Origin: a virus
IMG/VR virus record: IMGVR_UViG_3300037467_000723
Length of the DNA stretch: 64,000 nt
Reading direction: 5' to 3' (one strand)
Below are positions 40,237 through 61,924 of this stretch, in pieces (the first letter of the stretch is position 1; every line of letters begins with the position of its first letter). A program made the position numbers and the translations under genes. The notes beneath the pieces were generated by a model. The model saw only the letters and a list, made by a program, of their open reading frames with translations, did no database searches and was not told the origin of the DNA.

Positions 40237-40724
40237 TTATCATTCTCCTTTAACTTTTTTACGGCTGCTTCGAATTTATCGAGTGCTGCCGGTGTTAGAT
40301 ATTTCTGCAGCTCCCATGTTGGGTAGTCCGTTGTATGGATTCCTGTCCCGATCCCACGATGATGTTTGCTACACAAGACCATCATGCCGTCGATATCCTC
40401 GGGAGTCGTGATGTTCGGATGATCGGCCTTCACTTTTTCCCAATCGACTTCAGTCATAGCTGAGTACTCGACCACGTTGTGGTGAACCTCTAGGTCGCCT
40501 TCACAGCGTCCGTTTCCGATCCAGCACCCAACACCCTCGGCATGAAGTTTCTTCTTTACAGCACGGAATTCTGCGGACTCAGAACGTTCCTCGTGGGCCT
40601 CATAATGGGTGACAGTCTTCAGCGTCTGGAACTGGTCATGAGCTGGAACGACCTTGGCGTAATTCCCGGGCCCATATTGCTTTAAATGTTTCCTTAACTG
40701 TTCCATCGACATATTTACCTCCAT
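40233..40724 (-). CDS. HNH endonuclease (163 aa)
   Basis: CWIGNGRCEGDLEVHHNVV...LCSKHHRGIGTGIH HNH/zinc motif. Confidence 0.6.
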   Translation of the reverse strand: MEVNMSMEQLRKHLKQYGPGNYAKVVPAHDQFQTLKTVTHYEAHEERSESAEFRAVKKKLHAEGVGCWIGNGRCEGDLEVHHNVVEYSAMTEVDWEKVKADHPNITTPEDIDGMMVLCSKHHRGIGTGIHTTDYPTWELQKYLTPAALDKFEAAVKKLKENDK

Positions 40725-40787
40725 AAAAAGACGGACGCCACGAAATGTAGCGCCCTGTAATATGTGTACATAATGTACACTTTAATG

Positions 40788-41573
40788 CTATCCAAGTAAC
40801 TTCCTCCAAGTGTAAAGGCCACAGATACCGTCAGCTGCTAAGCCTAGTTTCTTTTGGAATCCCTTTAGAGCTGCCTCAGTGTGTGGTCCGAATGAGCCAT
40901 CTGGCGTACCTAACTCGAAACCTTTCTTTTCAAGCAACGTTTGCATAAGCTTAACTTCAGCACCTGTATCTCCCTTGCGTAAAACAGAGTGGGTTACCGG
41001 TTTAGCGACAGGAGCCGGATGTAGGCGTTTGTGAACCTCAGCTTTGAAGCGAACTAATTCAGATGGTTTCTTAATCCATGGAAGAGGGCAGTCTTTCCAA
41101 CCAACGACAGCTTTATGAGTCGTGATATCTCCCTCGTCTAATCCGTATAGCTTACATAGGTAAGCAGCTAGATCAGCAGCGTTCTGGAACGTTTTCTCAG
41201 TGATATTACCGTGCTCGTCTAAACACATTTCGATACCGACTGTGCAGTTATTCGGATATGAACCGAATTTCTTTAACGCTTCTGGCGTATAAGTTTTAGA
41301 TCCAACGTGGTACGCCATTTCAACGACACCTGGCTTATAAGGAAGGGCAGCAACGATAGCTACATCATCAACCTCGAATGTGGCCGAAGCAAAACGGGAT
41401 CTCTCATCGTTAGGATCTTGTTTGCGTAGATTAGCGAAGTATTTCGCAATTGCTACAGCAGACGCTCCAGGATCGGCAGTATAGTGCATTACAATTCCTT
41501 TCACTTTTTCGATCTTCGTTCCTTTACGTGAAAATCGGTTTACTGGAATAAACATTTCTGTAATTGGTAACAT
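40788..41573 (-). CDS. endolysin: N-acetylmuramoyl-L-alanine amidase plus PG_binding_1 domain (261 aa)
   Basis: amidase_2-like N-terminus (HYTADPG...E); C-terminal LRKGDTGAEVKLMQTLLEKKGF...DGSFGPHTEAALKGFQ. Confidence 0.8.
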   Translation of the reverse strand: MLPITEMFIPVNRFSRKGTKIEKVKGIVMHYTADPGASAVAIAKYFANLRKQDPNDERSRFASATFEVDDVAIVAALPYKPGVVEMAYHVGSKTYTPEALKKFGSYPNNCTVGIEMCLDEHGNITEKTFQNAADLAAYLCKLYGLDEGDITTHKAVVGWKDCPLPWIKKPSELVRFKAEVHKRLHPAPVAKPVTHSVLRKGDTGAEVKLMQTLLEKKGFELGTPDGSFGPHTEAALKGFQKKLGLAADGICGLYTWRKLLG

Positions 41574-41594
41574 TTCAATACCTCCGTTTAATTG

Positions 41595-41885
41595 TTATTT
41601 GAAAAATCCTGGTAATACAGCAGCACCGAGAGTGATAATCGCAGTAACTAGACCACCGACAATCTTGCCGTTACGGTCTTTCATCGCCGTCATCTCTTCG
41701 TCTTGGTTAGCTATTTTCTCTTCCAGACGCTTGACGGTTGCTTCGAGCTCAGTTCTCGGGACGTACTTTTTATCAATGTTGTCTAATAGGGTGTCTAATT
41801 TTGATTCCATACGACCCATCCCTTTTTCGATGTTTTCGACTGCCTTCTCGACTACTGCAATACGCTCGTTGTTTTCGTGCTCCAT
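41595..41885 (-). CDS. XhlA-like hemolysin/lysis-accessory membrane protein (96 aa)
   Basis: coiled-coil N-terminus plus C-terminal transmembrane helix IVGGLVTAIITLGAAVLPGFF; position as in PBSX-like lysis cassettes. Confidence 0.55.
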   Translation of the reverse strand: MEHENNERIAVVEKAVENIEKGMGRMESKLDTLLDNIDKKYVPRTELEATVKRLEEKIANQDEEMTAMKDRNGKIVGGLVTAIITLGAAVLPGFFK

Positions 41886-41935
41886 CGTTTCACCTCCCTT
41901 CGAGTCAATATAAAAGACGGCCTAGTTATAGACCG

Positions 41936-42166
41936 TCAATCACTAAAGGGTTCGCCCTCATCGTATTCAATTGACTTGACGCAATGGTCTTTCTGGAACA
42001 GGTTTAAAAACTTACAGACGAGATTGCAAAAAGGGCAGTTGTCGTGTTTGGCAACATGCTTACCCAATCTGCTTGAAATCGTTTCGTCCGGATACCCGTT
42101 AAACAGAGCAACATTGAAGAATTGGTCGATGGCAATTAGTAGATTCCAAAAATATCTTTTTACCAT
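41936..42166 (-). CDS. hypothetical small Cys-containing protein (76 aa)
   Basis: ORF between the tail fiber and lysis genes. Confidence 0.4.
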   Translation of the reverse strand: MVKRYFWNLLIAIDQFFNVALFNGYPDETISSRLGKHVAKHDNCPFCNLVCKFLNLFQKDHCVKSIEYDEGEPFSD

Positions 42167-42693
42167 ATGACTGTACTCAACTCGTCTAGGGATTGTGCTG
42201 CGTTAACTTTCGGCCCCAGGTCGTCACGAAGTTTAGAGACGTTACCTGAGATGTGGTACAGATGCGCCACGTAGACCGACTCGAATTTCATTGCATCTAG
42301 AGTTAGACGCACCACATTACCGTCGCTATCGTAAGCAGTCCATTTCTCCTCAGTTATACGACCTTTTTCGAAAGCACGATCCAATTTCTCGAAGTTTTTC
42401 TGTGCTTCATTGTCGCATGAGAATTGATATTCAACGCCAGCAACCGTTGCAGTGAAACGACCTAGGATGGCTTCATCACATGCTACTTTTAGCTTTCTCA
42501 TCTTACTGTTCCGAGCAAGACGTAAATGCGTTTCTTCGTTATAAGTTAGTGCACCATTTTCGTAATGATGAACGAACGGGTTACTGAAAAACGAGTGATC
42601 GTCCGGAACGGAGACCAGAATTGAATTCTGATCCTCCGAACTAGACCACCCGATCACTCGTTTTGTTTCGTCTATCTGAATGAAAATATCCAT
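42160..42693 (-). CDS. hypothetical tail-fiber-associated protein (177 aa)
   Basis: ORF immediately downstream of the tail fiber gene. Confidence 0.45.
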   Translation of the reverse strand: MDIFIQIDETKRVIGWSSSEDQNSILVSVPDDHSFFSNPFVHHYENGALTYNEETHLRLARNSKMRKLKVACDEAILGRFTATVAGVEYQFSCDNEAQKNFEKLDRAFEKGRITEEKWTAYDSDGNVVRLTLDAMKFESVYVAHLYHISGNVSKLRDDLGPKVNAAQSLDELSTVIW

Positions 42694-42706
42694 CGTATTC
42701 TCCTTT

Positions 42707-45583
42707 CTAGTACTCTAGGACATAGCGTAAAACAACGTCATTCGCAGTTGTGGTAGCCGAGCTGTTAGCTGCGTTTCCTGTGATAGTAGTGTTAGTAGGC
42801 GTGAAAGCTTTCGTGATAATAGTGTCCGTCGATGCACTTACATAGGCTCCAATTGCTTCATTATGCATATACCCAAGTGCAGGACTGTTCTTCGGTATAT
42901 AAGTGTAATCAAAGTCAAAGTTGTTAGCCGTAGAGGTTGAAGCATCGTAGTCCGACCACACAAGGATCCAACCGTTTGCACATTGACTTAACGATTTACT
43001 AGGCGTAATAGTCTGAGTATCCGTTAAATAGTAACCACCCGACCATAAAGTTCCTCTAGCTCCAGTTATGACAGGCTCACTGTTTAGGAACACTTGTCCA
43101 TCTAGTACACGTAACGTATCGTAATCATTCGTGAAATCGGTTGACCCAGATGTCTTACCTGACTTAAGCCATTGCATCCCCTCGGTATCTGAAGTAGCTT
43201 CATCATTCATTACGATGTTATTGGCACCGATGATATCGGAGTTATTCAGATTCAATCCATATGACTGCATAGCAGCCGTCCAAAACAAACTAGTACCCGT
43301 AGCAATTCCTCCGGCATAGTTAACGGTGAATTTTGTACTACCGGCAACGTTTAACCCAATAGCGTTTCCTGTGAAAGGGGATGGCGTAAAATAGTTATAA
43401 GTAGCACCCGTAGTGAATGCAACAGTTACTTTTGCACGGATCCAATACAGTACAGCCGTTGAAGCACCGGCCGGAATATTTGCTGTAGTACTCGAAGGCA
43501 TGAATGGTGTACTGTTTGAAACGGCTGCTTTTGCCGTCCAATCGGCTGGAGCAATGAACGTGAATGTCGCATCAGAGCTGAAGTTGTTTCCGGTTGGTGT
43601 AACACCGTTTAAAGTAGTCCAAGCCGTTCCATTCCAATACTCCCATGCGATGACCCCATTAACACCAGCTGTTATGATATCGACTATCTGTCGAGTGACT
43701 TTTGCAGTGTTACCGATGTACAAGTAATGACCAATTGCAGACGGTAATACCTGTGATTGACCAGGTAAACTGACGTTGGCCGAAGGCGTTTGATCTGCAA
43801 ATGCGGATCCATTCCAGTACCAGACTGCCGAGTTATAGTCGGTATTTAATGGCATATAAAGCATGGTGAACCAATTGGCTGAGCCTTTTTGTTCTAGTCT
43901 AATACCATCGGCATTGGCGTCTTGGAAAACGTGCATTAACGTTGCCGGCATGTTTGTATTAACACCAACACGTTGATTCGTTGTGTCAACGTTGAATACC
44001 GGATTCGCGGAGGAGTCCTGTACTTGGAACGTTGTTGTTCCGTTTGTGGACGCTTTGATTAAACCACCAACGAAAGTCGGACTGTCTGTCGTTTGAACGC
44101 CTTGGTTCATATGATAACCATCGACCATATCAGCGTTCAGATTCGCAACAGCTGTTGTTGATGTTACGGTAAACGGTGCTGTACCGGTAGCCACTGTGGA
44201 AGTTAACCGGTTGAATGACGGGCTATCCGTTGTCTGAAGAGCCTGGTTAAAGTTATATCCATCGACCAGATCAGCATTTAGGTTTGTTACTTTTGTAGTT
44301 GAAGCAACGATTAAAGGCGCTGTCCCCGTTGCCACAGCAGATACGATTTGTCCATCCGTTGATATCCCGTCATAGAACGTAATTCCGTATGAGGTATATC
44401 CAGCTGGAATGGAGCCGGCCGTATTTGGTGAAATCAACGACCAACCTAGAGCGCTAATCATCTGAACATTAAGCGTGATGGCGTCAGCACCAGCGTTATA
44501 AACTTCAAGGTACGCATAGTTACCAGAGTAAGTCGTGTGGTAAACAATACGAGCTTGGGTGATTCCGTGTCCAGCAACATAGTTTGAGAACATTACCTGG
44601 TTAATCGTTGCAGATGAAGTGTTTCCGTACATGATACCAGCGTTAAATGTAGCCTGACCGTGAACACCAGACAGAGTCCAATCTAATTCAAACCGTGCTG
44701 CGTTACGAGCGATGCTCGATGCGGACTGAGCAATACGGTACCAACCAGCTGTAGCCGGTAATGTTGCCGATTGTGACGTCTGCTGAGTAAAGCCAGCTGA
44801 ATCGATTCCATCCAACAAGTCAGCGTTCAAATTCGTTACTTTCGTCGTTGATGCTACAGTGAATGGTGCTGTGCCCGTTGCCACGTTTGAGACGAATACA
44901 CCGCTGTTGGAAATCGATGCTTTTGAGACCCCAGCAACTTGGAAGTCAGCAATGACCCCTGTGCCTAACTGGTTAATGTATAAGTTCGGGTTCGGAGAGT
45001 TTCGTTCAATATAGTTAGGACTTACATTACCCTGACCGTTGTTCGAGATAAACCCTTTGACCGTTAAGTCTCCGGTTATTAACGATCCGAACCGTGTTCC
45101 AGTTGTGTTGGATCCTGGAGGGGCTGCTCCACGGCTTGCATCAGCCGTGCTATCTGTATAAATAGTTGTTCCATCTTTGACTGTTGCGATTAAGCCATAC
45201 GTTGCTCCACCCACGGCAGTACGATAGATCCTCGTTGCTACCACGGAAGCAGCTGCTGGGACCGGTAGTGTTACCTTAACTGTCGTGTTTGCACTGGCGG
45301 TTGTGATCGCTAGGGAAGGGGAGACCGTTGTTTCTCCCGTTAATACTAATGTGCCGTCAGATTTGTAATATCCGGTCACGTACGTAAACTGATAGTTATA
45401 TGCTCCGACACCAAGCGTTGATCCAGCTTGACCAACCAAAGAGAAGCCAGTTGTTGTCGGTGCAACCACCGTAGGAGCGAATGTAATCGTTCCAATATCG
45501 TGGGTGCCTTTAAATACATCTACTAGCTGGTTTAAATCCGATGCTTGCGGTAGGCCTCCGACTGTTATGTTATATAAAGCCAT
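42707..45583 (-). CDS. tail fiber / receptor-binding protein (958 aa) with three internal about 27-aa repeats
   Basis: Gly/Thr/Ser/Asn-rich; repeats VATGTAPFTVASTTKVTNLNADLLDG x3; ribosome-binding site aaggaggttaataaATG. Confidence 0.7.
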   Translation of the reverse strand: MALYNITVGGLPQASDLNQLVDVFKGTHDIGTITFAPTVVAPTTTGFSLVGQAGSTLGVGAYNYQFTYVTGYYKSDGTLVLTGETTVSPSLAITTASANTTVKVTLPVPAAASVVATRIYRTAVGGATYGLIATVKDGTTIYTDSTADASRGAAPPGSNTTGTRFGSLITGDLTVKGFISNNGQGNVSPNYIERNSPNPNLYINQLGTGVIADFQVAGVSKASISNSGVFVSNVATGTAPFTVASTTKVTNLNADLLDGIDSAGFTQQTSQSATLPATAGWYRIAQSASSIARNAARFELDWTLSGVHGQATFNAGIMYGNTSSATINQVMFSNYVAGHGITQARIVYHTTYSGNYAYLEVYNAGADAITLNVQMISALGWSLISPNTAGSIPAGYTSYGITFYDGISTDGQIVSAVATGTAPLIVASTTKVTNLNADLVDGYNFNQALQTTDSPSFNRLTSTVATGTAPFTVTSTTAVANLNADMVDGYHMNQGVQTTDSPTFVGGLIKASTNGTTTFQVQDSSANPVFNVDTTNQRVGVNTNMPATLMHVFQDANADGIRLEQKGSANWFTMLYMPLNTDYNSAVWYWNGSAFADQTPSANVSLPGQSQVLPSAIGHYLYIGNTAKVTRQIVDIITAGVNGVIAWEYWNGTAWTTLNGVTPTGNNFSSDATFTFIAPADWTAKAAVSNSTPFMPSSTTANIPAGASTAVLYWIRAKVTVAFTTGATYNYFTPSPFTGNAIGLNVAGSTKFTVNYAGGIATGTSLFWTAAMQSYGLNLNNSDIIGANNIVMNDEATSDTEGMQWLKSGKTSGSTDFTNDYDTLRVLDGQVFLNSEPVITGARGTLWSGGYYLTDTQTITPSKSLSQCANGWILVWSDYDASTSTANNFDFDYTYIPKNSPALGYMHNEAIGAYVSASTDTIITKAFTPTNTTITGNAANSSATTTANDVVLRYVLEY

Positions 45584-45618
45584 TTATTAACCTCCTTAAA
45601 ACGTACACATAATGTGTA

Positions 45619-46110
45619 CTAATTTCCTTTCATTAAAACTTGCCATTGAATCGACAGAGTCGTAGTGTTATCGTGTGATACACCATTTAATGCTACATGA
45701 CTCCATAAATTACCGGCAGAATCGAATAAACCGGCCTCAGTTAGATCAATCGAGCCAGTAGGGTTATTTACGGGATCCACCGTACCCAAGGCGTCAGTTT
45801 GTTGGTAAGTTATCGAGTACTGAACGTAATAGGTTAAGAATGTAGTAGCGTAATCTACACCAAATCTCGTGTTAGCTAATTCGGCCCAAAGTGCTACATC
45901 GGAAGGGGAGGTACCGTTAACGTTGGTTCCCGTACCAACAGCGATTGAGCTAGGAACCGGTACTTGAACGCCTGTCCACATTTGAGCGACTTGGCCCCGT
46001 GCAAAGTTCGTGATCTGGTTTTTAAACACCTGGTCAAAAACGACCTCGCCCGTTTCTTTATCGTGCTTCATTACACGAACGTAACCAACGGCTTCTAAAC
46101 TATCGTTCAT
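45619..46110 (-). CDS. tail/baseplate protein (163 aa)
   Basis: ORF in the tail module. Confidence 0.45.
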   Translation of the reverse strand: MNDSLEAVGYVRVMKHDKETGEVVFDQVFKNQITNFARGQVAQMWTGVQVPVPSSIAVGTGTNVNGTSPSDVALWAELANTRFGVDYATTFLTYYVQYSITYQQTDALGTVDPVNNPTGSIDLTEAGLFDSAGNLWSHVALNGVSHDNTTTLSIQWQVLMKGN

Positions 46111-46380
46111 TTATGTCCACCTCCCGTTAGATCCCCATAACCAGCCACAGGAAGGAGCATTCCAAACCTCGCCTTGGACGTCAGTAGCTACATATGTAGT
46201 ACCGTCCCCCCAAACTTTTGCGGCTGGTGTACTTTGAATGAGGCGAGTGGACTCGACATTCTCCATAGTATCGAAAGGATTCGTATACATTTGGATGAGC
46301 GTGTTACTCGGATCATCATCACTTTCTAGCTGGCCTTTTCTAAGGTCGTTTATTAGCTGAATAAAAGTATCTATTTTCAT
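46111..46380 (-). CDS. hypothetical tail protein (89 aa)
   Basis: ORF. Confidence 0.45.
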   Translation of the reverse strand: MKIDTFIQLINDLRKGQLESDDDPSNTLIQMYTNPFDTMENVESTRLIQSTPAAKVWGDGTTYVATDVQGEVWNAPSCGWLWGSNGRWT

Positions 46381-46391
46381 TTTGTGTCCTC

Positions 46392-47855
46392 CTAAACGAG
46401 ATAAGGTGAGTCAGCGAATTCTATGTTATAGAAAACTATCAGACTACCAGAATCGTTCTTTACAACCGACTTAGAGACACGCTGCACGAACATCACATCG
46501 TTAAGCCCTCCAAAGCGTTTAGTACTTTTTAAGGTAAAGTTCTGACCGGCAACCCAACCACTTTTAGTTGTGGCGTTGAAGTACGCTTCGAATGTTCCGG
46601 AAATTTGCGGAAATCTATACTTTGATAGAATCAATTGGCCCTTTGCCTGTACTGCTGACAACGTAGAATTGGTCAAAGACTTATCTGAATAAACCTCTTC
46701 GTAAACGCCGTCAGTATTGCCTTCAACCTTGGCCGTTACCCCTTGAGCTTCCGGATCCTGACCGAGCCATACCATGTCTTTCAAATAGTGAAAACGTACG
46801 ACAACGACCTTACCAGAAGGTACTGCCCCGTTACCGGAAAAGTTTGGAATTCGAATTAAATGCTGGGTATAGTGGATGTAAGCAGTATTACTATCTCCAC
46901 CACGGTCAGGTGCTCCGTCGATGATGTCACGCTTCAAAGTCAATTTCGTTCCAGCAGTATTGTTATTACCATTTTTGAATGATGTATCTGCGTTATACTG
47001 AGCCATCGAATCGTAAACAACGACTGTTACGTCCCCAGCCACGGAAGAAACACGATATCCCATAGACCATTGGAGCGTTTGCCCATCGCCGGTAAACGGA
47101 AGGTAATACAGTTCGGCTGAACGTGTTTTAAATCCCTTAATGAAGATCTTGTTTACTTGCTGCTCGGAGTTCTCGACAATCTCCAGGTTACCGTAGTTGG
47201 TTATGTCAGTTTCGACATCTAACAGGTTATTCGGTAGGGGAGAGTTAAATGCCTCGAGCGTATACATATGGACGTCCTTATAGTAATCCACGTACCAACC
47301 CATCTGCACCTGATCTGCCACTGACTTAATCGCATCTGACGGTTTTTGATAGTCGGAATATACTGGCGCAATCGTTGTCCCCGAATTTTTTACGTTATAA
47401 GTAGTAAACCCAGGACAGAACGCACTGACCATGGCTTTTACGGTTGTTTCCGGAGCTTGCTGTTGATACCATCCTTGAATAAGATGTCGGTCTAGCCATT
47501 GGACATAAGACTTACAGTGAACCGTGTATATACGTGCTTGGCCCTCCACGGTCTCGTGAACTTCAACGACCACTCCACCAAATTCACGGTAAGGTTTATT
47601 TGAACCATCCGGAGCCGTGATAATAGCGTTTGGATTTTGCCAGACAATTTCGTTACCACACTTTGGTCGAACGAAAGAGACGTTTGTGGACGTCTTGGTG
47701 TCGAGTACGGTGTCGCCAGAATTAATGTACATAGTAAAATCCATAACATCCGAAGTCATAATTACGTTGTTGTCAACGTGAATTGATTCGTACTCAACCA
47801 ATGGAGTAACGTCTAATGTATTTAATAGTATCTGGACTGAGTTTGTTGCTGCCAT
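46392..47855 (-). CDS. baseplate/distal tail protein (487 aa)
   Basis: position downstream of the tape measure gene; preceded by promoter-like motif copy 8. Confidence 0.55.
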   Translation of the reverse strand: MAATNSVQILLNTLDVTPLVEYESIHVDNNVIMTSDVMDFTMYINSGDTVLDTKTSTNVSFVRPKCGNEIVWQNPNAIITAPDGSNKPYREFGGVVVEVHETVEGQARIYTVHCKSYVQWLDRHLIQGWYQQQAPETTVKAMVSAFCPGFTTYNVKNSGTTIAPVYSDYQKPSDAIKSVADQVQMGWYVDYYKDVHMYTLEAFNSPLPNNLLDVETDITNYGNLEIVENSEQQVNKIFIKGFKTRSAELYYLPFTGDGQTLQWSMGYRVSSVAGDVTVVVYDSMAQYNADTSFKNGNNNTAGTKLTLKRDIIDGAPDRGGDSNTAYIHYTQHLIRIPNFSGNGAVPSGKVVVVRFHYLKDMVWLGQDPEAQGVTAKVEGNTDGVYEEVYSDKSLTNSTLSAVQAKGQLILSKYRFPQISGTFEAYFNATTKSGWVAGQNFTLKSTKRFGGLNDVMFVQRVSKSVVKNDSGSLIVFYNIEFADSPYLV

Positions 47856-47876
47856 CTGTAACCTCCTCTCATATAT

Positions 47877-47906
47877 ACAGTCCGGCCCAAATCAGCGTTT
47901 GTAACG
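47877..47906 (-). promoter_or_regulatory. phage-specific promoter-like motif, copy 8 (minus strand)
   Basis: reverse complement reads CGTTACAAA-cgctgattt-GGGCCGGACTGT-atatatgagaggaggttacagATG. Confidence 0.6.
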
Positions 47907-47944
47907 GATAAACAGAAAAAAAAGGGAGCACAAGGCCCCCAGTT

Positions 47945-51685: not shown

Positions 51686-51699
51686 CTAATTTCACCACC

Positions 51700-51900
51700 T
51701 TATGATTCTTGCTGTGATTTCTGATACTGTGCCTCACGACTTAAGAACAGAAATGCTTGCTCGATACGCCATGCCGGTTGGGACTCTAGATCAGTGAATG
51801 TCCACCCCATTTCCTTGCACAGCAAAAATTCGTTATACTCGAGTGGAGCTTCATCCGAGTAGCCCCGGAGAAGTTTGTCCACCCGATCCTTTAGTTTTTT
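51700..51900 (-). CDS. tail assembly chaperone frameshift extension (GT-like, via -1 frameshift)
   Basis: mRNA ...ACC UCA AAA AAC UAA: slippery heptamer A_AAA_AAC (plus 51894-51900); the -1 frame continues ...KKLKDRVDKLLRGYSDE into ORF 51700..51882. Confidence 0.55.
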   Translation of the reverse strand, partial: KKLKDRVDKLLRGYSDEAPLEYNEFLLCKEMGWTFTDLESQPAWRIEQAFLFLSREAQYQKSQQES

Positions 51901-52199
51901 GAGGTTGCCTCAGTACGTGCTTCTGCGAATGCTCCGGCTACTTTCTCGATAACCATCGCTGGTAATAGGTCAATGCTTTCAGCAGTTAACGGGAATGCGA
52001 TTGGTTGATTATTTTCGTCGAGTACGTATCCACCTTTTACTAAAGTCATAGTCAAGATCTCTGCTACTCCTAATTGGGACTCCATTGAATCATCCTTCAT
52101 AGCAGATGTAATTTTCTTTTGCTGCCCCCAAGAGAGCACCTTTGGGTTTTTGATTTCTACAAATTGTCCTTCGCCAAGTTCGTGTAATTCGATTTTCAT
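51891..52199 (-). CDS. tail assembly chaperone (G-like, 102 aa)
   Basis: position between the major tail and tape measure genes; ends at a slippery site. Confidence 0.6.
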   Translation of the reverse strand: MKIELHELGEGQFVEIKNPKVLSWGQQKKITSAMKDDSMESQLGVAEILTMTLVKGGYVLDENNQPIAFPLTAESIDLLPAMVIEKVAGAFAEARTEATSKN

Positions 52200-52239
52200 T
52201 AATAATTCCTCCAGTAGTTTAATAGTTTAGTTTCCGTGT

Positions 52240-52275
52240 AAAAAAAGAAGGAGCACGTCACGGAACGTACTCCCA
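52240..52275 (-). terminator. rho-independent terminator after the major tail gene
   Basis: minus-strand hairpin ggagtacg-ttccgtga-cgtgctcc plus T7. Confidence 0.65.
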
Positions 52276-52280
52276 CTAGA

Positions 52281-53210
52281 TTAGTAACTTGCTACAGCAT
52301 TAACCAAAGTGATTTGGCAAAGGCCAGCGTCAGTCGCGTTATACAAAGCTTTAAAGTCCATATCAACACGAACGAATTCGTTTGAACGGTCAATAGTAGC
52401 CTTGGTGATGTCTGTTTTACTCAATAAGATAGTTAAAGAGTTGTTGGCATCGATGGTGAACTGGATCTGAATTGATTGCTGTGTACCGTTAGAGTACAGT
52501 AACCATTCAGCTTCGGAGTCAACGTCGAACGTTAATTTGCCGTGGATCTCGATACGACCAGTTACGTACTTAGTAGGATCTTGGCTGTTGTTACCAGCAT
52601 AGATTAACTGATTAGCACGTTTGATAGAAAGGTCTCCACCAAGCATATTCACGTTTGATACACCACCAAGAGTAAGTGATGCCATCCAACCTTGGAACGG
52701 CTTAATCACGTTCTGAGTCGGAGTAGACTTAGTAGTCAACGCAGAAATCTTAGATTGATACTTTGCGGAAACTTTCATCATTCCGTCATCATCGAACTTA
52801 AGATCCACTTCATCAATGATCGCACCAGGATAGCGGCGTTCTTGAGCACCAGCAACTACGTTGTAGTCTGATAGGGTATAAGAATCACAGTTTGAATCCA
52901 GCACCTGGAACTTGTGAGTGTACGGGTTAGCAGCGCCAGTAACCGTATCTTTACCGAGGATACCTTTTAGGAAATATCCAAGTGTGTCCGGATAAGCTAG
53001 AGTGTCAATGTCGATCTTAGAATGACGAGTTGTATTGTAAACAGCGAAATCCTTAGATAGTACGCCACGGCGGCCTTCATCGACAGCCTTTTTAATCTCA
53101 TCTTCGTTTTTAATAGAATCATAAGGAATGTACATAGTAGGCGCTACAGCCGTACCGAAAGTTGTTTCCTTAGCGATTCCCAGGTAACCTAATGCACTTA
53201 ATTTAGCCAT
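52281..53210 (-). CDS. major tail (tube) protein (309 aa)
   Basis: position upstream of the G/GT chaperones; strong ribosome-binding site; followed by a terminator. Confidence 0.6.
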   Translation of the reverse strand: MAKLSALGYLGIAKETTFGTAVAPTMYIPYDSIKNEDEIKKAVDEGRRGVLSKDFAVYNTTRHSKIDIDTLAYPDTLGYFLKGILGKDTVTGAANPYTHKFQVLDSNCDSYTLSDYNVVAGAQERRYPGAIIDEVDLKFDDDGMMKVSAKYQSKISALTTKSTPTQNVIKPFQGWMASLTLGGVSNVNMLGGDLSIKRANQLIYAGNNSQDPTKYVTGRIEIHGKLTFDVDSEAEWLLYSNGTQQSIQIQFTIDANNSLTILLSKTDITKATIDRSNEFVRVDMDFKALYNATDAGLCQITLVNAVASY

Positions 53211-53230
53211 TAGTTAAATCATCTCCTCGT

Positions 53231-53386
53231 TTACTTACTAGATTTTTTTTCTACAACTTCTTCGAAATTAGCGTTGAAGAAATCATCCGGCACCTCGATC
53301 ACATCACCGTTTTTAACAACAACCGGAGCTTCCGGAAGCATAACGATCATGTCATCTTGTTGGCCGACATATTTAACTTTTTTCAT
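53231..53386 (-). CDS. small hypothetical protein (51 aa)
   Basis: ribosome-binding site AGGAGGttctatATG; MKKVKYVGQQDDMIVMLPEAP...; not in the track. Confidence 0.4.
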   Translation of the reverse strand: MKKVKYVGQQDDMIVMLPEAPVVVKNGDVIEVPDDFFNANFEEVVEKKSSK

Positions 53387-53396
53387 ATAGAACCTC

Positions 53397-53837
53397 CTAT
53401 CCGGTTACTTGCATAGAAACGTCGAACTGTTTTATTGCCAGATGAACGACGTTTTGCCCACCAACGATTTGAGGTGGGGTAGTAATCGTATTGATGTGGT
53501 CTACCGTTGCACTGAGAACTGCTCCACCCATGGTCGGATCCTTTCGTAGCTCAGCATCGATTGCGTCCAGTAAGTCATCAAAACCTAACTGGCCGGAACC
53601 ATCTGGTGACAAGTCAATAGTCGAAATTTCTAATTGTGCCGTAAACTCGATAATCTTCTTACCGTAAGGAGCACCTTGAGTCAGGCGTTCTTCCTTCGAT
53701 TTAGGTAATGAAATTACAACACTAGGGAAGTCCGTTTGTTGCATTAGCTTCGGCCGGTAGGTGAACACCTTTTTCACACCAGTAGCATCAGCTATAGTCG
53801 TTTTAATGGCGCTTTTAACATCTTGCCTAGTACTCAC
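53397..53837 (-). CDS. tail completion / tail terminator-like protein (146 aa)
   Basis: position in the head-tail joining module. Confidence 0.45.
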   Translation of the reverse strand: MSTRQDVKSAIKTTIADATGVKKVFTYRPKLMQQTDFPSVVISLPKSKEERLTQGAPYGKKIIEFTAQLEISTIDLSPDGSGQLGFDDLLDAIDAELRKDPTMGGAVLSATVDHINTITTPPQIVGGQNVVHLAIKQFDVSMQVTG

Positions 53838-54349
53838 GTAATCACCACCTCACGTAAAAAGTCAGCGAAATGATTCATCGCGATATCTATTGCAGCACCA
53901 TCGGAAGCCATGTGCTCAACGGTTTTCTCCGACCAGTGAGTAGGGACTCCTGGAGTGAAAGAACCCATGCCGTGAATGACCGGTGTAAAAATCGGAGACC
54001 CGAACCGTTTATCTACAGGGAATGCCGACATACCATACGACTTTGCCCACATTTCCTGACCAGCCGGAAAGTTACCGACATCCATGTAATAAGCGGATAA
54101 TAAACCATCGAAATCAATATCGAACCCATCGCCGTGGACATTGATATTGTGCTTGATGCTTTCCTTCGTGTCGCCGTTACCCCTTGGATTGGTACGGACG
54201 TTAAGCATCGGTTTAAAGTACTCTTCGGCGTATTTTGCAAGATCCTCGGAAGTGTGAATCATAAAACTGTTCCAATCGTCTCGGAAGCTCAAGAACCGAT
54301 TCGACTGATCCCAGGACTTTTGATCCCATTTACCAGTTACTTCGATCAT
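53834..54349 (-). CDS. head-tail joining protein (171 aa)
   Basis: position. Confidence 0.45.
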   Translation of the reverse strand: MIEVTGKWDQKSWDQSNRFLSFRDDWNSFMIHTSEDLAKYAEEYFKPMLNVRTNPRGNGDTKESIKHNINVHGDGFDIDFDGLLSAYYMDVGNFPAGQEMWAKSYGMSAFPVDKRFGSPIFTPVIHGMGSFTPGVPTHWSEKTVEHMASDGAAIDIAMNHFADFLREVVIT

Positions 54350-55221
54350 CAGCTCACCACCACTCGACGATAAGGAGCGAGTAGCTGCTTAGCGATACCG
54401 AGCTCATCCGTTTTATTTGGGGTAGCGTTCACATTCATCACGGACGTTTCTTGCATCGTGATAGCCAAGGCACCACGGTCTTTAATTAATGCACAAGCTA
54501 ACATAATAGTCGCTTGCTTGACGGCTTCCGGGATTGCCGAAACACCAGTACCAACTACGTGAGCAAATAGTAGGGGATTCTTCAGCGTTAAAACATTACC
54601 GTTAATCGCTGTTACGACAACCGATTCTTGTAAAGCGCCATCATAGATTGATAGTCTTTGGTTTACCACAATACCCGTTGAATCCACGACAGTAACCGTA
54701 GTTGCTCCAGCAGAAGCAGCAAGAGCCAATGTTGTGTTTGTCCATCCGTTTAAATAGGTATACTTAACCGTTATCGGGATTTCTGTTTGGCGATTATATA
54801 ATGGCTCACCATATCCATAGAGGGTTGCAGCATCTTGACCGAGAGCGGTATTGTAGAACAAATCATAGATCGTGAACCAATTGTCACGAACTTCAATACT
54901 GTTCAAGTCGACTTGTTCATACGGTTCACGAGGGTGAGAACGATATTGTACGCTCTGTAGCGCAATAATAGGGACTTGGTCGACGTGGACGTTAACTCGC
55001 CCATCACGCCCCATTCGCACTTCCTTGAGCTCCGTATTCACTGTTGCCTCAAGCGATTCTTGCTGGACAATAGTGTCAACCCATGCCGAAGCACGTCTAA
55101 GGATGTTCAGCAGCGCACCATCTTGGGCCTGTTGATTTCCGTAAGCTGTCTGGTCTAGTGTGGAAGTATCGATTCCCGTAGGTGCTTGTTTGAACTCATT
55201 AGCTGTAACATAGAGTGACAT
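54349..55221 (-). CDS. structural protein (290 aa)
   Basis: position. Confidence 0.45.
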   Translation of the reverse strand: MSLYVTANEFKQAPTGIDTSTLDQTAYGNQQAQDGALLNILRRASAWVDTIVQQESLEATVNTELKEVRMGRDGRVNVHVDQVPIIALQSVQYRSHPREPYEQVDLNSIEVRDNWFTIYDLFYNTALGQDAATLYGYGEPLYNRQTEIPITVKYTYLNGWTNTTLALAASAGATTVTVVDSTGIVVNQRLSIYDGALQESVVVTAINGNVLTLKNPLLFAHVVGTGVSAIPEAVKQATIMLACALIKDRGALAITMQETSVMNVNATPNKTDELGIAKQLLAPYRRVVVS

Positions 55222-55686
55222 CTAGTCGATTACCTCCTTTCGGTACTTGTTAATAACATCGAGTACAGAGACAGGTAAGATACAATTCCACTCTGTAATC
55301 ACGCCTTGTTTTAATAGACTTTCAATCTCTTGAATTGCATCGAGCATGTCGTCTGGGACACTTTGATGACCGGATATATACGTTACCTCAACTTCTGAAT
55401 ACGCAGTCCCGAATAGGGTAGGAGGGAGGTTAATATAAAGGTAGCCGTCTTTCTCGTGGATTACCGTTTGAGCCAGATCAATGTCTTCCCATTCGGTTCC
55501 TCCGAAGAAGTTTTCGAACACCCAGGCAGCTGCCTTTGCACGTATTGAAAGGATTTCTATCACCTTATCATCACGAATCACAGCGCCTTTATCGCCGTAA
55601 TGTAATACCTCGGTGTAGGTGTTTAGTTGAATCTTGTAGCCGACATAGCGTTCAAATAACAATTCGGCACGTTCTAATAACGTCAT
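55222..55686 (-). CDS. head-tail adaptor/connector-like protein (154 aa)
   Basis: position after the capsid gene. Confidence 0.45.
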   Translation of the reverse strand: MTLLERAELLFERYVGYKIQLNTYTEVLHYGDKGAVIRDDKVIEILSIRAKAAAWVFENFFGGTEWEDIDLAQTVIHEKDGYLYINLPPTLFGTAYSEVEVTYISGHQSVPDDMLDAIQEIESLLKQGVITEWNCILPVSVLDVINKYRKEVID

Positions 55687-55868
55687 TATTTAATCAGCTT
55701 CGCTTCCTTAAGTTCCTGTACGAATGCGGCCGGAACAAGTGCTTTACCATCTACGAAATGAGCACGAAATCCATCGCCAACATATACAGCATCTTTAGCA
55801 TCTGCGAAATGTTCAACCTCAACGAATTCCGGTTCTAATGAAGCTTCTTTTGCTTTTGCTTTTGCCAT
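55686..55868 (-). CDS. small structural protein (60 aa)
   Basis: ORF. Confidence 0.4.
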   Translation of the reverse strand: MAKAKAKEASLEPEFVEVEHFADAKDAVYVGDGFRAHFVDGKALVPAAFVQELKEAKLIK

Positions 55869-55902
55869 TTTGCTAATCCTCCTTTAAAACGTCATAATGT
55901 AA

Positions 55903-55930
55903 ATGAAAAAGGAGCGTCCGAAGACGCCCC
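55903..55930 (-). terminator. rho-independent terminator after the capsid gene
   Basis: minus-strand gggggcgtc-ttcg-gacgctcc plus T5. Confidence 0.6.
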
Positions 55931-55942
55931 CGATTACATTAA

Positions 55943-56947
55943 TTACGCACGTTGAATAACACCGATAGTATGAGCGTTACCAGCAAGCTTAGCTACAGGA
56001 GCACCGAAGTGGACACCAACGTAAGATTCGTTAAGGTTAGAAGTCTTACCAAGTTGGAACACACGAACGTCTTTAGAGCCAACGTAGTGGAATTCAACAA
56101 GGTCTTCAGTAACGATAGCGAATGGATAGTTGTGTAATCCAGCACCAGCAGCAGCGATACCAGGGATAGTCTGATCCATTGTTAAGAATGGTTCTGGGAT
56201 AATTGGAAGTAAGCCAGCAGCAGTTTGGATACCCATTACGCTTAGACCAGCTTTAACTTCAGCCATGTCAGTACCGATGTAACGGATTGCGTTGTTGCTG
56301 TTCTTCACCTCTTGCTCAAGGTAATCAAGCGCGATTGGGTTCATGTAGATCGCAGTTGGACGGATAGCGAACAACGGATCGTTAACCATGTTAGCAACTT
56401 GAGTACGGATGCCATCAAGGATAGAAGCAGAAGATCCGATTGTTTGAGTCTTAGTGATTTGGTTTACTAAACCTACGAACTGAATGCCACCATTACCAAC
56501 TTGGTTACCGGAAACAGTATCAGTACCAGCCCATAAACCTTTGTCACGTAAGCGAAGTACACCATTAACCATGTCCTTCAAATCTTTCGCCTTTAATTGA
56601 GCGAATACGTTTCCTTGCTGACCAACTGTTTCTAGGTCGAATAAGCTGTAGTTGATTTGGTTAGTGATCGCCTTAACAACTAGAGACTTTTCAACACGAG
56701 TTGGTGATGTTGCTGTTGGAGCGATAGTACGAGGGTCAGTGTATTGACCATCAGCAATCGCAGTTTGATCGAACCAGCGAGAGATAGAACCGGTAGCTGG
56801 GACATACTCAATACGTTGTCCTAAAACACCAGCACGACGAACAAGGTCGTTGATTTCGCTTTGGAATTCTGGAACGATGATAGCACCGTTGCCCATATAG
56901 TCAGCAGCGGCATTTAAGTTAGTGAATTGTGCAATTTGATTTGCCAT
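55943..56947 (-). CDS. major capsid protein (334 aa)
   Basis: position after the scaffold gene; size; strong ribosome-binding site; flanking terminator. Confidence 0.7.
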   Translation of the reverse strand: MANQIAQFTNLNAAADYMGNGAIIVPEFQSEINDLVRRAGVLGQRIEYVPATGSISRWFDQTAIADGQYTDPRTIAPTATSPTRVEKSLVVKAITNQINYSLFDLETVGQQGNVFAQLKAKDLKDMVNGVLRLRDKGLWAGTDTVSGNQVGNGGIQFVGLVNQITKTQTIGSSASILDGIRTQVANMVNDPLFAIRPTAIYMNPIALDYLEQEVKNSNNAIRYIGTDMAEVKAGLSVMGIQTAAGLLPIIPEPFLTMDQTIPGIAAAGAGLHNYPFAIVTEDLVEFHYVGSKDVRVFQLGKTSNLNESYVGVHFGAPVAKLAGNAHTIGVIQRA

Positions 56948-56985
56948 TAATTAATTTCCTCCTGTGTGTACATAATGTGTACTAA

Positions 56986-58107
56986 TTAGTTTTGTTTTGC
57001 TAAAGCCTCGATTTTTAATGCAAGGCGCTCTTCAATAGTTAAATCTTTGTTGTTCTCGATGGAAGCCATTAACTTCGTTTTGTCATCAGCTGCGTCAACT
57101 TCATACTTTGCTAGAGCTGACGTAGGGTAGAGGATTGATTTACGAGCAGACGCTTGTAAACTTGTTTCTTCCTTAAGTGACTTCAATTCAGCTTTAACGG
57201 CCTCAAGTTCAGCTTGTAAACTAGATGCGTTTAATGTTGCTTCTTCAGCAACTGGTTCAGCTACCGGCTCTGCAACTGGTTCTGCTGGAGCAGCTTCTGG
57301 TTCCGGAACAACCTCTTGGTCTGGAGTAGGGTCGGCTTCTGGCTCGACTACAACTTCCGGCTCAGCTTGTGCTGGTTCAGCCTCAACTACTGGCTCAGCG
57401 GCTGGTTCAACAACCTCAGGCTCAGCAACAGGTTCAGCTTCGGGAGCAACCTCGGCTTGTGGTTGTAATTCATCTTTCAGCGCTTTGATTTCGCCACCGA
57501 CGAATTCCTTTAATTGGGCTAACAATTCTTCTAAATTCAATTCTGTTTCCTCCTTTGTTTTATCTGCTGAAGCGGCGAGGGAGGTGTCAGCGTATGAAGC
57601 TGAATGACGGTATAAAATTGAAGCGCCTGTGAAGTATCCTAGACTAGTAACTACAGCGGCTGGAACACCATCGATTTCTCCTTTAACGAGTTGCGTTTGC
57701 GCCGTCTCGTACGAGAATCCTAGAGTCGATTGACTTGCTTTGATTGACATCGCAGCGTCCTCAAAATCTAGTGCGTACACGTATCCTTCGATCATAACCG
57801 GCACAGCGCCGTCACTTTGCGTTTCTCCGAGATAGGCCTCGGTAATTACGCCTACTTTTGCCTTAGGATCGTGTCCAGTTGGGTTTCCTTCCACATAGTT
57901 AACAGCCATTCCTTTAAGAGATGCTACTGCCGGTGCTCCGACTTCAATAGGGATATAAACCCGTAAACCGTTTGCTCCGTGAGGAGGCTCTGTTGATAGA
58001 CGGTTCAGATAAGTCATTACACCTGAGAAAGGCATTCTATTGGGATGTTCTAGTGCGCTAATACTCAATTTTCCGTTAGCAGATGCTTTTAAAGCGATCT
58101 TTTTCAA
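56986..58107 (-). CDS. scaffolding protein with Pro/Glu/Ala/Val-rich repeat region (373 aa)
   Basis: repeated (A/V)EPE(V/A)V segments; coiled-coil C-terminus; position between the portal and capsid genes. Confidence 0.5.
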   Translation of the reverse strand: MKKIALKASANGKLSISALEHPNRMPFSGVMTYLNRLSTEPPHGANGLRVYIPIEVGAPAVASLKGMAVNYVEGNPTGHDPKAKVGVITEAYLGETQSDGAVPVMIEGYVYALDFEDAAMSIKASQSTLGFSYETAQTQLVKGEIDGVPAAVVTSLGYFTGASILYRHSASYADTSLAASADKTKEETELNLEELLAQLKEFVGGEIKALKDELQPQAEVAPEAEPVAEPEVVEPAAEPVVEAEPAQAEPEVVVEPEADPTPDQEVVPEPEAAPAEPVAEPVAEPVAEEATLNASSLQAELEAVKAELKSLKEETSLQASARKSILYPTSALAKYEVDAADDKTKLMASIENNKDLTIEERLALKIEALAKQN

Positions 58108-58126
58108 ATACTCACCCCCTTTCGAG

Positions 58127-59557
58127 CTATGCGTTCAATCCAGCGTCATGGGCTTTGGTCTCGGATTTTTTCTCCTTGATCTTCTTAGCGCCATCAACAC
58201 CGTTATTCTTTTCTTCATTTCCTGTCTTACCTTTATCGCCATTTACTTGACCCTTCGCTGCTTCCGGATCATTCGGATCTTCACCGTCTGTCGGAGCTGG
58301 TGGGGGACTTCCGTATTTAGCTCGATAAGCACTGACTGTACAGTCGCCCATCGATTTGCCGGTTTCTGGATCCTTTTCTAGATCCGGTAAACCAATCTCA
58401 CGGCGCATTTCGTTAATGGTCATTACATCTAATTGGCCGTATAATTGATGCACAGCACCAATCGATTTTTTATCGTCCATTGATGTGATAAACATAAACT
58501 GGAATTCAGCAACGCCATCTAGATCGAATAGACCTAGTAATTGCGTCATGTAATGCTCAATTGAGTGCGCCATCGGACGTACAGCACCTTCGTCAGACAT
58601 GGAATCCATTGTCTCACCGGCACCACGGCCCATTGCCATCGTCGCACCGAATTTCATCGCATCGAGGCCGAATGCATTTGCAATGACCGTAATCAAGAAT
58701 GATTGCCATTGTAGGTACAATGATTGGTCGTTTGCAGCACCTAGCTCGACAGATTTAACATCGTCTGTGCCACCAATGATTGGCGTGTTACTTCGTCCTT
58801 CGACGCTATCTTGCCAGTAAGCACGAAATTCCTTCAGTTGAGGATCTGTGATTTCCTGACCCAAGAATAATAGTTTCTTAGGTGTAGCATTCGAAGCGGT
58901 TTTCCCAGCATACGACTGAGCATCTAATAGGTACTGAATCTGTTGATATGCTGCTTCCACTGGTCCGAGACCGAACGGTGTATTCGTCCGTGGTGTATAC
59001 TTCATCATCATCAGTTCTTGAGGAGTGAAGTCAACATGGCGACCTTGTAAGTCTTCTTGAGCATATCGTCTTTGGTTAGGTGAACCGTTCCAATCCAGGT
59101 AAATCTGAATGGAAGCAGAGTCCACAGGGTAGAGCAAGTAGGGATTATCGGCATTGCCGTCCCATTTTTTAATCTCGAACGTCCCGGATCCGACAACTAA
59201 CATATCCTCGATCAGCTGGCCCAGGAACGTCATAAAGTTATCGTCGACATTTGGTCGCCTAAACACGTTCTTTGCTAACTCCACTTGCTTTTTATTAGCA
59301 GCGGTGAATTTCTTTCCAGGTAGGGGAGTGATGTCCCAATCGAGTTTTGATACCTGGTTACGGATATAATCGATTGCGTGACGAACAACTGCCGTCTCAC
59401 TGAAGGCCCGTAGCCTTTGTGGGTTAACTTTCATGTTCGGTGTAGACTGATTTGTACCAGAGTAACCATAGAAGAAAGGATTATCCTCGGCTTTACCGAC
59501 AGGTGCTTTCCCCGTAAATGCGTTAAACGCAGCTTGTATCCTATCTCGAAATCCCAA
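58127..59557 (-). CDS. portal protein (476 aa, TTG start)
   Basis: size and position downstream of the large terminase; acidic C-terminus. Confidence 0.7.
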   Translation of the reverse strand: MGFRDRIQAAFNAFTGKAPVGKAEDNPFFYGYSGTNQSTPNMKVNPQRLRAFSETAVVRHAIDYIRNQVSKLDWDITPLPGKKFTAANKKQVELAKNVFRRPNVDDNFMTFLGQLIEDMLVVGSGTFEIKKWDGNADNPYLLYPVDSASIQIYLDWNGSPNQRRYAQEDLQGRHVDFTPQELMMMKYTPRTNTPFGLGPVEAAYQQIQYLLDAQSYAGKTASNATPKKLLFLGQEITDPQLKEFRAYWQDSVEGRSNTPIIGGTDDVKSVELGAANDQSLYLQWQSFLITVIANAFGLDAMKFGATMAMGRGAGETMDSMSDEGAVRPMAHSIEHYMTQLLGLFDLDGVAEFQFMFITSMDDKKSIGAVHQLYGQLDVMTINEMRREIGLPDLEKDPETGKSMGDCTVSAYRAKYGSPPPAPTDGEDPNDPEAAKGQVNGDKGKTGNEEKNNGVDGAKKIKEKKSETKAHDAGLNA

Positions 59558-59600
59558 CGGCTAACCTCCTTTCTACTAAAGTGTGTGTACATTATGTGTA

Positions 59601-61862: not shown

Positions 61863-61924
61863 TGCGCCCTTGGATGGTTCCCCCTAATTGTGAGGAACGG
61901 GCAGCATACTAAAAACCGTCTGCA

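Follow-up and report, generated by a model that had tools for sequence, protein, structure and literature searches.

The stoperators of L5, a Cluster A mycobacteriophage, are many copies of a short motif placed at early promoters and in short intergenic spaces (PMC9283540). Their orientation correlates with the direction of transcription, and the motif differs among related phages as if it were co-evolving with its reader (PMC9283540). Here we describe a 17-base near-palindrome with the consensus GTACACAT-N-ATGTRYAC, which is dispersed over gene junctions and two promoters in the siphovirus of IMG/VR record IMGVR_UViG_3300037467_000723. The stretch analysed, called the window below, is 64,000 nucleotides long and makes up ~64 kb of a ~66.5-kb genome with a G+C content of 44%; the 2.5 kb between window positions 64000 and 1 were supplied by a near-identical contig, L006. 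Judging from the layout and the orientation rule, which the two have in common, the L5 operator/stoperator network appears to be the closest known system, while the type of site and the reader are not shared. Of the 11 copies here, two are on sigma-A-type promoters and the remaining nine are in gaps between cistrons or in the loop of a ribozyme, and, as in L5, orientation tracks transcription and the variants are genome-specific. The L5 site, however, is a 13-bp asymmetric sequence, present at >20 sites per genome and read by a monomer with a helix-turn-helix (HTH) and a 'stoperator' domain, whereas the site here is a 17-bp near-palindrome of two hexamers, present ~11 times in a phage of a Firmicute host, and its candidate reader is a small ribbon-helix-helix (RHH) protein. 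We put the probability that the element is a dispersed double-stranded DNA operator for this putative repressor, encoded at 6123-6386, at about one half.

The omega protein of pSM19035 is an RHH protein whose dimers of dimers bind short repeats cooperatively, either direct or inverted (PMC9499535). The element resembles its operators in having short subsites and in accepting either arrangement, and a further likeness to RHH systems is that the copy at 6075-6091, upstream of 6123-6386, overlaps the putative RHH gene's own promoter. The heptads of omega, however, are contiguous (7-bp phase) and clustered at three promoters, whereas the copies here are solitary, with subsites 11 bp apart. CopG of pMV158 is encoded by an RHH gene directly 5' of replication genes, and 6123-6386 is placed in a similar way; CopG, like Arc and Mnt of phage P22, has one or two operators, in contrast to the set scattered over structural-gene junctions here. 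The C1 repressor of the P1 plasmid-prophage has many separate 17-bp operators scattered over the genome, which reminds us of the dispersed 17-bp sites, the 70-kb plasmid relatives and the ParM-like protein found here. The C1 operators are asymmetric and lie at promoters, and their repressor is large and not of the RHH type, whereas most copies here lie off promoters.

Two further kinds of repeat have to be considered. The SAS of Cluster K mycobacteriophages is a conserved repeat just 5' of the start codons of a subset of genes. The ribosome-binding site is part of the SAS, at a set distance from the start, whereas the copies here can be anywhere from 0 to ~45 nt away from the Shine-Dalgarno sequence, and many are found ahead of a terminator or in a promoter. 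Intercistronic RNA processing signals are represented by the T7 RNase III sites and by the synthetic Csy4-hairpin and ribozyme insulators. The element is likewise a hairpin-capable sequence between cistrons just 5' of ribosome-binding sites, with hammerhead ribozymes in the same slots, but RNase III sites are long helices of ~20 bp or more, unlike the short stem of the element.

Occurrence and anatomy of the element

The element is real and far above chance. The 7-mer was observed 15 times in the window against 7.0 expected, a count reached in 0 of 100 shuffles; an 18-mer with at most 3 mismatches was observed 5 times against 0.04 expected, and GTRYACANNNTGTRYAC with at most 1 mismatch 6 times against 0.12. 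GTAC avoidance, restriction or methylation was ruled out as the cause, GTAC not being depleted (observed/expected 1.07). Matches to the 17-mer in other genomes are chance singles, save for tandem arrays in contigs L108 and L061 and a longer repeat in an Elusimicrobia metagenome-assembled genome (MAG). In the latter (WRFH01; L066, L103, L110, L120-L122), the exact 17-mer occurs six times in a repeat of >100 nt (..ggggagagggatagggtgagggggtgtGTACACATCATGTACAC..), which is an unrelated element.

An earlier sequence-only reading had named seven sites, all of which are present within 1-2 nt of where it placed them, and a motif search over the genome and related phages revealed an eighth window copy (5436). 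Three more lie in the 2.5 kb outside the window (L006 744, 1625 and 2216), giving 11 in the genome. None of these is inside coding sequence; each lies between genes or runs into a stop codon by a base or two (1-3 nt among the eight window copies), and a TAG stop repeatedly shares its G with element position 1. The window copies, with the terminator that follows one of them, are:

3283-3299, + strand: element copy GTACACA TTG TGTGTAC (perfect), in the stem III loop of hammerhead HH5
5436-5452, + strand: element copy GTACACA TTA AGTGTAC, with the stop codon of gene 4787-5446 at its centre and the next Shine-Dalgarno sequence 2 nt on
6075-6091, + strand: element copy GTACACA TCA TGTACCG, forming the exact 17-bp spacer from TTGCAT (6069-6074) to TATAAT (6092-6097)
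22075-22091, + strand: degenerate element copy GTACACA TTA TGTATCT, 3 nt 5' of the Shine-Dalgarno sequence of gene 22107
40780-40764, - strand: element copy GTGTACA TTA TGTACAC, 7 nt past the endolysin stop, with an intrinsic terminator 8 nt further on
40725-40755, - strand: intrinsic terminator predicted by folding (9-bp stem and U tract), directly downstream of the 40780 copy
45619-45603, - strand: element copy GTACACA TTA TGTGTAC (perfect 7-3-7 palindrome), between the stop of a 163-aa gene (TAG overlaps G1) and the tail-fibre Shine-Dalgarno sequence
56982-56966, - strand: element copy GTACACA TTA TGTACAC, between the stop of a 373-aa open reading frame (ORF) and the major capsid Shine-Dalgarno sequence
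59601-59585, - strand: element copy GTACACA TAA TGTACAC, between the TerL stop (TAG overlaps G1) and the portal Shine-Dalgarno sequence

The relatives' loci were fetched with capsid and HTH_26 homologues and come from eight phages, whose capsid proteins are 70-87% identical to that of the window. From these and the window genome, nine genomes in all, 39 copies were gathered and aligned, with the consensus G1 T2 A3 C4 A5 C6 A7 T8 N9 A10 T11 G12 T13 R14 Y15 A16 C17. Base counts were taken over 35 copies, with the L002 lineage left out, and are given for facing positions:

Positions 1 / 17: G 34 / C 31
Positions 2 / 16: T 35 / A 30
Positions 3 / 15: A 33 / C 17, T 17
Positions 4 / 14: C 33 / A 23, G 12
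Positions 5 / 13: A 35 / T 33
Positions 6 / 12: C 35 / G 34
Positions 7 / 11: A 34 / T 33
Positions 8 / 10: T 31 / A 32, with any base at position 9

Conservation is mirror-symmetric around N9, the exception being dinucleotides 3-4 and 14-15, which are limited to AC, GT or AT. Judging from these counts, the element is best described as two GT-RY-AC hexamers (positions 1-6 and 12-17) with centres 11 bp apart, joined by an A-T-N-A-T linker; the variable bases are the central two of each hexamer, and the hexamers lie one helical turn apart. The arm order given in the sequence-only reading, TGTGTAC NNN GTACACA, has no match, and the actual palindrome is GTACACA NNN TGTGTAC. The same reading had described the 7-mers as inverted or direct; this corresponds to GTACAC and GTGTAC being reverse complements, and all four combinations of hexamer orientation occur, but the direct form is 7-4-7 and not 7-3-7.

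Copies with an imperfect right arm have the centre T-N-A in 14/14 cases, while perfect palindromes have it in 4/8, the others carrying GCG, GAA, TCC or TTG. Where the two arms differ, the invariant one comes first (5') on the sense strand at 14 independent loci and second (3') at a single locus, the L027 tube site. Each genome also tends to its own form: the L026/L031 phage has an identical 17-mer with a TGA centre in 3/4 copies, the L011/L028 phage has perfect arms in 4/4, and the L002 phage has CGTACA TTA TGTACG in 3/3. Copies of the same genome are more alike than orthologous copies across genomes, and between genomes whose proteins have diverged by up to 30% the arms stay the same whereas the flanks and the central base change. 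Such genome-specific flavours argue for co-evolution with a phage-encoded reader.

Positions of the copies at gene junctions, terminators and promoters

At the portal junction, where the order is stop, element, Shine-Dalgarno sequence and start, a copy is present in 9/9 genomes. The capsid junction also has one in 9/9, degenerate in L027; the orthologous copies there are those of L003, L026, L011, L025, L012, L027, L002 and L037. The tail-fibre junction has a copy in the window only, none being present at that junction in L028 and L031. Further copies between a stop and a Shine-Dalgarno sequence are found at window 5436 and 22075, L006 1625, L031 16394 and L027 1107. The earlier claim of a position a few nucleotides 5' of the Shine-Dalgarno sequence was borne out, the gap being ~2 nt for capsid, 6 nt for tail fibre and 13-14 nt for portal. 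The genes concerned had been taken for those of the most abundant structural proteins, which is only partly right and makes for a weak link; portal and fibre are low-copy proteins, and no copy precedes the tail-tube or scaffold genes.

The position upstream of the portal, capsid and tail-fibre genes, and a phage-encoded small sigma-like protein (34833-35210; matches to phrog_3512 and Sigma70_r4), are what would be expected if the element were a late promoter or a late-activator site served by this region-4 protein, one of the roles proposed earlier. We regard that role as most improbable. The early operon has copies just as the late one does, and others stand directly ahead of terminators, within the loop of a hammerhead and inside a sigma-A promoter. 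With 0-14 nt between the end of the element and the Shine-Dalgarno sequence, no promoter would fit downstream of it, and upstream there is no second conserved box. The AT-rich centre (CATTAT/CATAAT) was rejected as a -10-like sequence, being GCG, GAA or TCC in relatives (the L011/L028 phage). A hairpin promoter of the N4 type was likewise rejected, given no conserved loop purine, no virion RNA polymerase gene and copies that precede terminators. The WalR, PhoP, TnrA, Crp and DnaA boxes did not fit the element.

The copy reported after the endolysin stop is present, and the intrinsic terminator 8 nt on was absent from the sequence-only reading. The same order of stop, element and terminator follows non-identical endolysins in four phages (window 40780, L028 8459, L030 6445 and L031 8461). 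The element also stands between the tail-tube gene and a terminator in L012, L027 and L002, and between a methyltransferase gene and a terminator in L028 (15050). Eight copies are located 4-9 nt ahead of an intrinsic terminator. In the late operon, terminators also follow the capsid, tail-tube and tape-measure genes, and there is another at 41.9 kb.

The tail-tube stop/terminator junction reads 'ctaat ATGTACATTATGTGTAC tagtggg' in L027 (14686), L012 (11894) and L002 (14738), and 'ctaat c tagtggg', without exactly the 17-nt element, in the window (52199-52281, - strand), L026, L011 and L025. This precise presence or absence indicates that the element is gained or lost as a unit. It would also suit a copy-and-paste linker repeat without a dedicated reader, spreading by recombination into permissive gaps and marking points of module exchange, as would the insertion into a ribozyme stem loop and the copies that flank a methyltransferase cassette replacing other genes in L028, L030 and L031 or follow non-identical endolysins. 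Such a repeat is, in our opinion, quite unlikely. Constant arms beside a drifting centre and drifting flanks, at a capsid identity of 70-87%, mean that the sequence as such is under purifying selection; a reader is implied by the symmetry of the conservation and by the variants peculiar to single genomes; and the portal and capsid junctions are not mosaic boundaries.

Two features of the early + strand genes carry a copy each:

6069-6097, + strand: sigma-A-type promoter of the putative repressor gene, immediately past a terminator at 6031-6062 (14-bp stem)
3249-3312, + strand: type I hammerhead HH5, with stem I GUUGCA/UGCAAC, CUGAAGA core, stem II, GAAA and an extended stem III

L006 2216, a perfect copy, stands at the head of the early operon, 10 nt past the -10 of TTGACA-N18-TACATT; the L027 2025 copy follows a TATAAT by 1 nt, and this TATAAT lacks a good -35. 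With the 3283 insertion in its stem III loop, HH5 still folds as a three-way junction (minimum free energy, z = -2.4). No Rfam match was obtained for HH5 at E<=5, and three neighbouring hammerheads were matched below threshold only; at the element itself Rfam gave nothing, its matches in the window being tRNAs and these sub-threshold hammerheads. A core scan found six type I hammerhead cores in the early operon of the window (+ strand; 676, 1387, 1786, 2484, 3255 and 4185). They consist of CUGANGA, stem II, GAAA, a short stem III and GUC, and occupy six consecutive intergenic regions, each 20-30 nt 5' of a Shine-Dalgarno sequence. This series suggests self-cleavage between every early cistron. 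The L006 744 and L027 2025 copies lie 3 nt upstream of a hammerhead stem I, these hammerheads being outside the window (L006 ~735-680 and L027 ~2010-1960, both on the - strand).

A separate 17-bp inverted repeat, TAGCGTTCTAG(T/A)CGTCA ... TGACG(A/T)CTAGAACGCTA, occurs a little beyond the window, in the early operon's long leader (L006 1862-1846/1605-1589 and L027 2205-2189/2158-2142, - strand), and shows a compensatory change between the two contigs. It encloses only a degenerate element copy in L027, and a 62-aa ORF together with an element copy in L006.

Candidate reader and recognition as DNA or as RNA

The gene behind the 6069-6097 promoter is:

6123-6386, + strand: candidate binder of 87 aa, in an ORF open from 6108, with a likely start at ATG 6123 after GGGAGG and the RHH signature RKTVYIEEKLLEIIQELASNRKGEQTRIIDAALRSYL

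Its product looks like an RHH protein. RHH_1 was the sole Pfam match (residues 27-61, E=0.12), and only 11 homologues were found among 1.8 billion cluster representatives; as a group, these match RHH_3 (5.9e-4), RHH_1 and ParG. Two homologues carry the motif in tandem in one chain, as would be expected of a unit that works as a dimer. Compared with CopG, the family was in register over the whole fold (P=6e-4, probability 28%), and AlphaFold2 predicted a strand followed by two helices at low confidence (pLDDT 53-63). The gp6108 protein had no match in phage or plasmid collections. The putative RHH gene is located just upstream of the replication module, which includes 6707-7681, whose DnaD-like product is not common to the relatives.

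Other candidates were considered. The XRE protein (15169-15606) was rejected as the reader, since it has probable operators of another sequence (TTAACCnnnnGGTTAA). Upstream of the - strand XRE gene, in the divergent region, two 16-bp palindromes, TTAACCTTGTGGTTAA and TTAACCACTTGGTTAA (15667-15682 and 15766-15781), are spaced 99 bp apart; they are probably operators of the XRE repressor and, as such, a separate second regulatory system. HTH_26 (38688-39056) has no element in its control region, which speaks against it as the binder without being decisive. A ParR/centromere role was rejected as well, the copies being solitary rather than arrayed and none adjoining the ParM-like gene. None of the scanned ORFs was recognised as encoding a repressor with a stoperator domain.

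If the element is an operator, the putative RHH repressor would bind it as a dimer of dimers, each hexamer being taken by a single symmetric dimer. Direct and inverted hexamers would both be tolerated because a dimer with twofold symmetry does not distinguish GTACAC from GTGTAC. The 6075 copy, in the spacer of the gene's own sigma-A promoter, would serve autoregulation at P6075, and the L006 2216 copy, which covers ~+3 to +19 of the main early promoter, would serve early shut-off or prophage silencing. At the intercistronic copies of the early and late operons, the bound protein may hinder elongating RNA polymerase in the manner of a stoperator, or the copies may hold repressor as a reservoir. 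The purpose would most plausibly be to keep a plasmid-type prophage quiet or to shut off early transcription.

Several observations favour recognition of double-stranded DNA. The symmetry extends to T8 and A10, which cannot pair across a one-base loop in a hairpin, and A16 and C17 are conserved even in the commonest form, GTACACA..TGTACAC, where the most stable RNA stem (a shifted 5-bp one) leaves them unpaired; both points therefore favour DNA. Since the T-N-A centre is fixed beside an imperfect arm and free beside perfect arms, binding energy seems to be traded within a protein site. The 6075 copy is barely transcribed because it lies in a promoter spacer behind a strong terminator, and this spacer, a classic operator position, again favours DNA. 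Recognition by a dimeric protein rather than as a fixed RNA hairpin had already been preferred in the sequence-only reading, and the GT-RY-AC spacing, the symmetry including T8/A10 and the putative RHH gene behind the element-bearing promoter agree with that preference.

The same 11-bp unit recurs in unrelated replicons. L108 (Alkalibacterium sp. 20 contig62, a plasmid-like contig with toxin-antitoxin genes) has seven tandem 11-bp units at 4257-4330 (GTACACATTAT GTGTACATAAT GTACACATAAT...) with mixed hexamer orientation, and L061 (a Flavobacterium MAG) has GTACACATTAT twice and GTATACATTAT twice at 4580-4640, beside a primase-like gene. These arrays are probably iterons; tandem arrays phased in this way are a DNA-binding architecture, and they show that the 11-bp unit can work as a phased DNA repeat.

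Other observations weigh against an operator. The left arm is near-invariant and the right arm variable, and this follows the direction of transcription at 14 loci against one, an asymmetry that is predicted by an RNA signal and not by a symmetric DNA binder. Every copy can form a sense-strand hairpin, 95.4% of cells pairing in a 5-bp register when G-U is included. A road-block placed just ahead of a terminator would have no obvious purpose, and three copies are tied to hammerheads, which are RNA devices at the same kind of position before a ribosome-binding site. Finally, the RHH assignment adds up several weak signals (a Pfam match below threshold, the pLDDT of 53-63 and an uninformative Foldseek search), and no homologue of the 6123-6386 product was found in the relatives' fetched loci, which leave out early regions.

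These points lead to the alternative that the element acts as RNA, through a short hairpin of the sense strand, conserved in its 5' arm (GUACACA) and its loop, that is read by an RNA-binding protein or an endoribonuclease of the phage or the host. Such a hairpin would punctuate polycistronic transcripts, by 5'-end definition or protection, terminator modulation or translation repression, and would be the late-operon counterpart of the six or seven hammerheads between early cistrons. We consider it possible, though rather doubtful. Besides the orientation of the asymmetric arms (14 independent loci to 1), it would account for copies in transcribed intergenic spacers, often 0-3 nt from a Shine-Dalgarno sequence, for the eight copies ahead of terminators, for the hammerheads in equivalent slots between early genes, and for one copy lengthening a hammerhead stem III and two standing 3 nt upstream of a stem I. 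R14 and Y15 are the bases that keep Watson-Crick or wobble pairing with U2 and G1 in the 5-bp register, and the L002 lineage alters both arms together.

The pairing itself, however, does not seem to exceed what base composition provides: no covariation signal was seen beyond column composition, the 95.4% of the 5-bp register compares with 96.1% in shuffles, and in the 7-bp register 79.9% of cells are paired against 78.1% in shuffles, pairs 3-15 and 4-14 failing in 17/39 and 23/39 copies. The two-sided changes of L002 are equally expected of a palindromic DNA site, and sense and antisense strands fold alike, with a mean of -4.1 kcal/mol each; counts of G-U pairs did not set the two strands apart either. 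The hairpins are weak (-1 to -6 kcal/mol), and the commonest form has two A-C mismatches in a 7-bp stem, yet keeps A16 and C17. The T8/A10 symmetry is left unexplained, the 6075 copy lies between a -35 and a -10 behind a terminator, and the L027 2025 copy would be truncated in the transcript if its TATAAT, which has no good -35, is a promoter. The annotated ORFs yielded no candidate for an RNase or an RNA-binding protein, and a MazF/EndoA UACAU site was rejected, most copies being without UACAU. The translational operator or endoribonuclease signal proposed in the sequence-only reading is a possible form of RNA recognition, but leaves the 6075 promoter copy and the pre-terminator copies unexplained. 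A punctuation mark in the strict sense, in which the element is the protein-read counterpart of the hammerheads and cuts or insulates the long early and late transcripts where cistrons meet and beside terminators, the promoter copies then being secondary, seems to us unlikely. For the level of recognition as such, DNA has an even chance or slightly better, and RNA would be a somewhat doubtful choice.

Genome context and implications

The genome is divided into two arms, with early and replication genes on the + strand and late genes on the - strand:

1-38 kb, + strand: XRE-type HTH, serine recombinase, DnaD-like, DnaB, ParM-like, primase, PolA, ribonucleotide reductase, ThyX and small sigma-like protein genes
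38-64 kb, - strand: TerS, TerL, portal, 373-aa ORF, major capsid, tape measure, tail fibre, endolysin and HNH endonuclease genes

The 373-aa ORF upstream of the capsid gene, presumed from its position to encode the scaffold, had no family match. Strong AGGAGG ribosome-binding sites, TTG/GTG starts and the endolysin type point to a host in the Bacillaceae. GenBank phages include no close relative (no megablast match; portal tblastn identity <=26%), and relatives were found only in metagenomes and in one Bacillus cereus assembly. Portal, TerL and capsid-alignment queries against metagenome and genome contigs returned nothing or distant relatives only, and IMG/VR searched with early proteins gave no match. 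A homologue of HTH_26 in Neobacillus bataviensis has a chromosomal context with no phage. Two 70-kb circular plasmids, from Paenibacillus and Selenomonas (NZ_CP090979.1 and NC_017069.1), are distantly related and share the head-tail synteny; the Paenibacillus plasmid pYPD9-1 has its own, different dispersed palindrome, TTGACAACGTTTnGTGTTGTCAA, which is confined to the early region. A ParM-like actin gene and a 115-aa gene downstream of it are located at 13206-14596 (+ strand) of the window. The ParM-like gene and the 70-kb plasmid relatives suggest a plasmid-prophage lifestyle.

Other features of the window were noted in passing. A serine recombinase ORF at 7776-8576 (+ strand; 266 aa, Resolvase and Recombinase domains) is directly followed by a 121-aa ORF at 8588-8953 (+ strand), and 7776-8953 may be a split or interrupted large serine recombinase. 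A 221-aa ORF at 16922-17587 (+ strand) has a faint match to sigma factors. HNH endonuclease genes are found at 34406-34846 (+ strand), directly before the small sigma-like gene, and at 40233-40724 (- strand), the latter conserved after the endolysin terminator in relatives. Three tRNA genes are located upstream of TerS (61789-62253, - strand), and upstream of these and of the late operon the region 62620-62980 contains direct and inverted repeats (ACGTTTTAACGTTTA three times, TATAGAACGTTTAATTAACGTG... twice), which could be an origin, a late-promoter or a packaging control region.

If the element is read as RNA, the phage would pair ribozymes with a protein-read hairpin to punctuate its operons, which would be the more unusual outcome, and, as a punctuation mark, the element would be to this phage what Csy4-hairpin and ribozyme insulators are to synthetic biology. 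If it is an operator, one small RHH protein would regulate an uncultured clade of ~67-kb Bacillaceae siphoviruses via ~11 sites, including the junctions before the portal, capsid and tail-fibre genes, and there would be a simple structural account of half-sites that work either way round. The 87-aa protein and its 17-bp site would make a compact, portable pair with natural specificity variants (GTACAC versus GTACGY). Genome-wide silencing of the stoperator type would then extend beyond the actinobacteriophages, to another protein fold and another site architecture.

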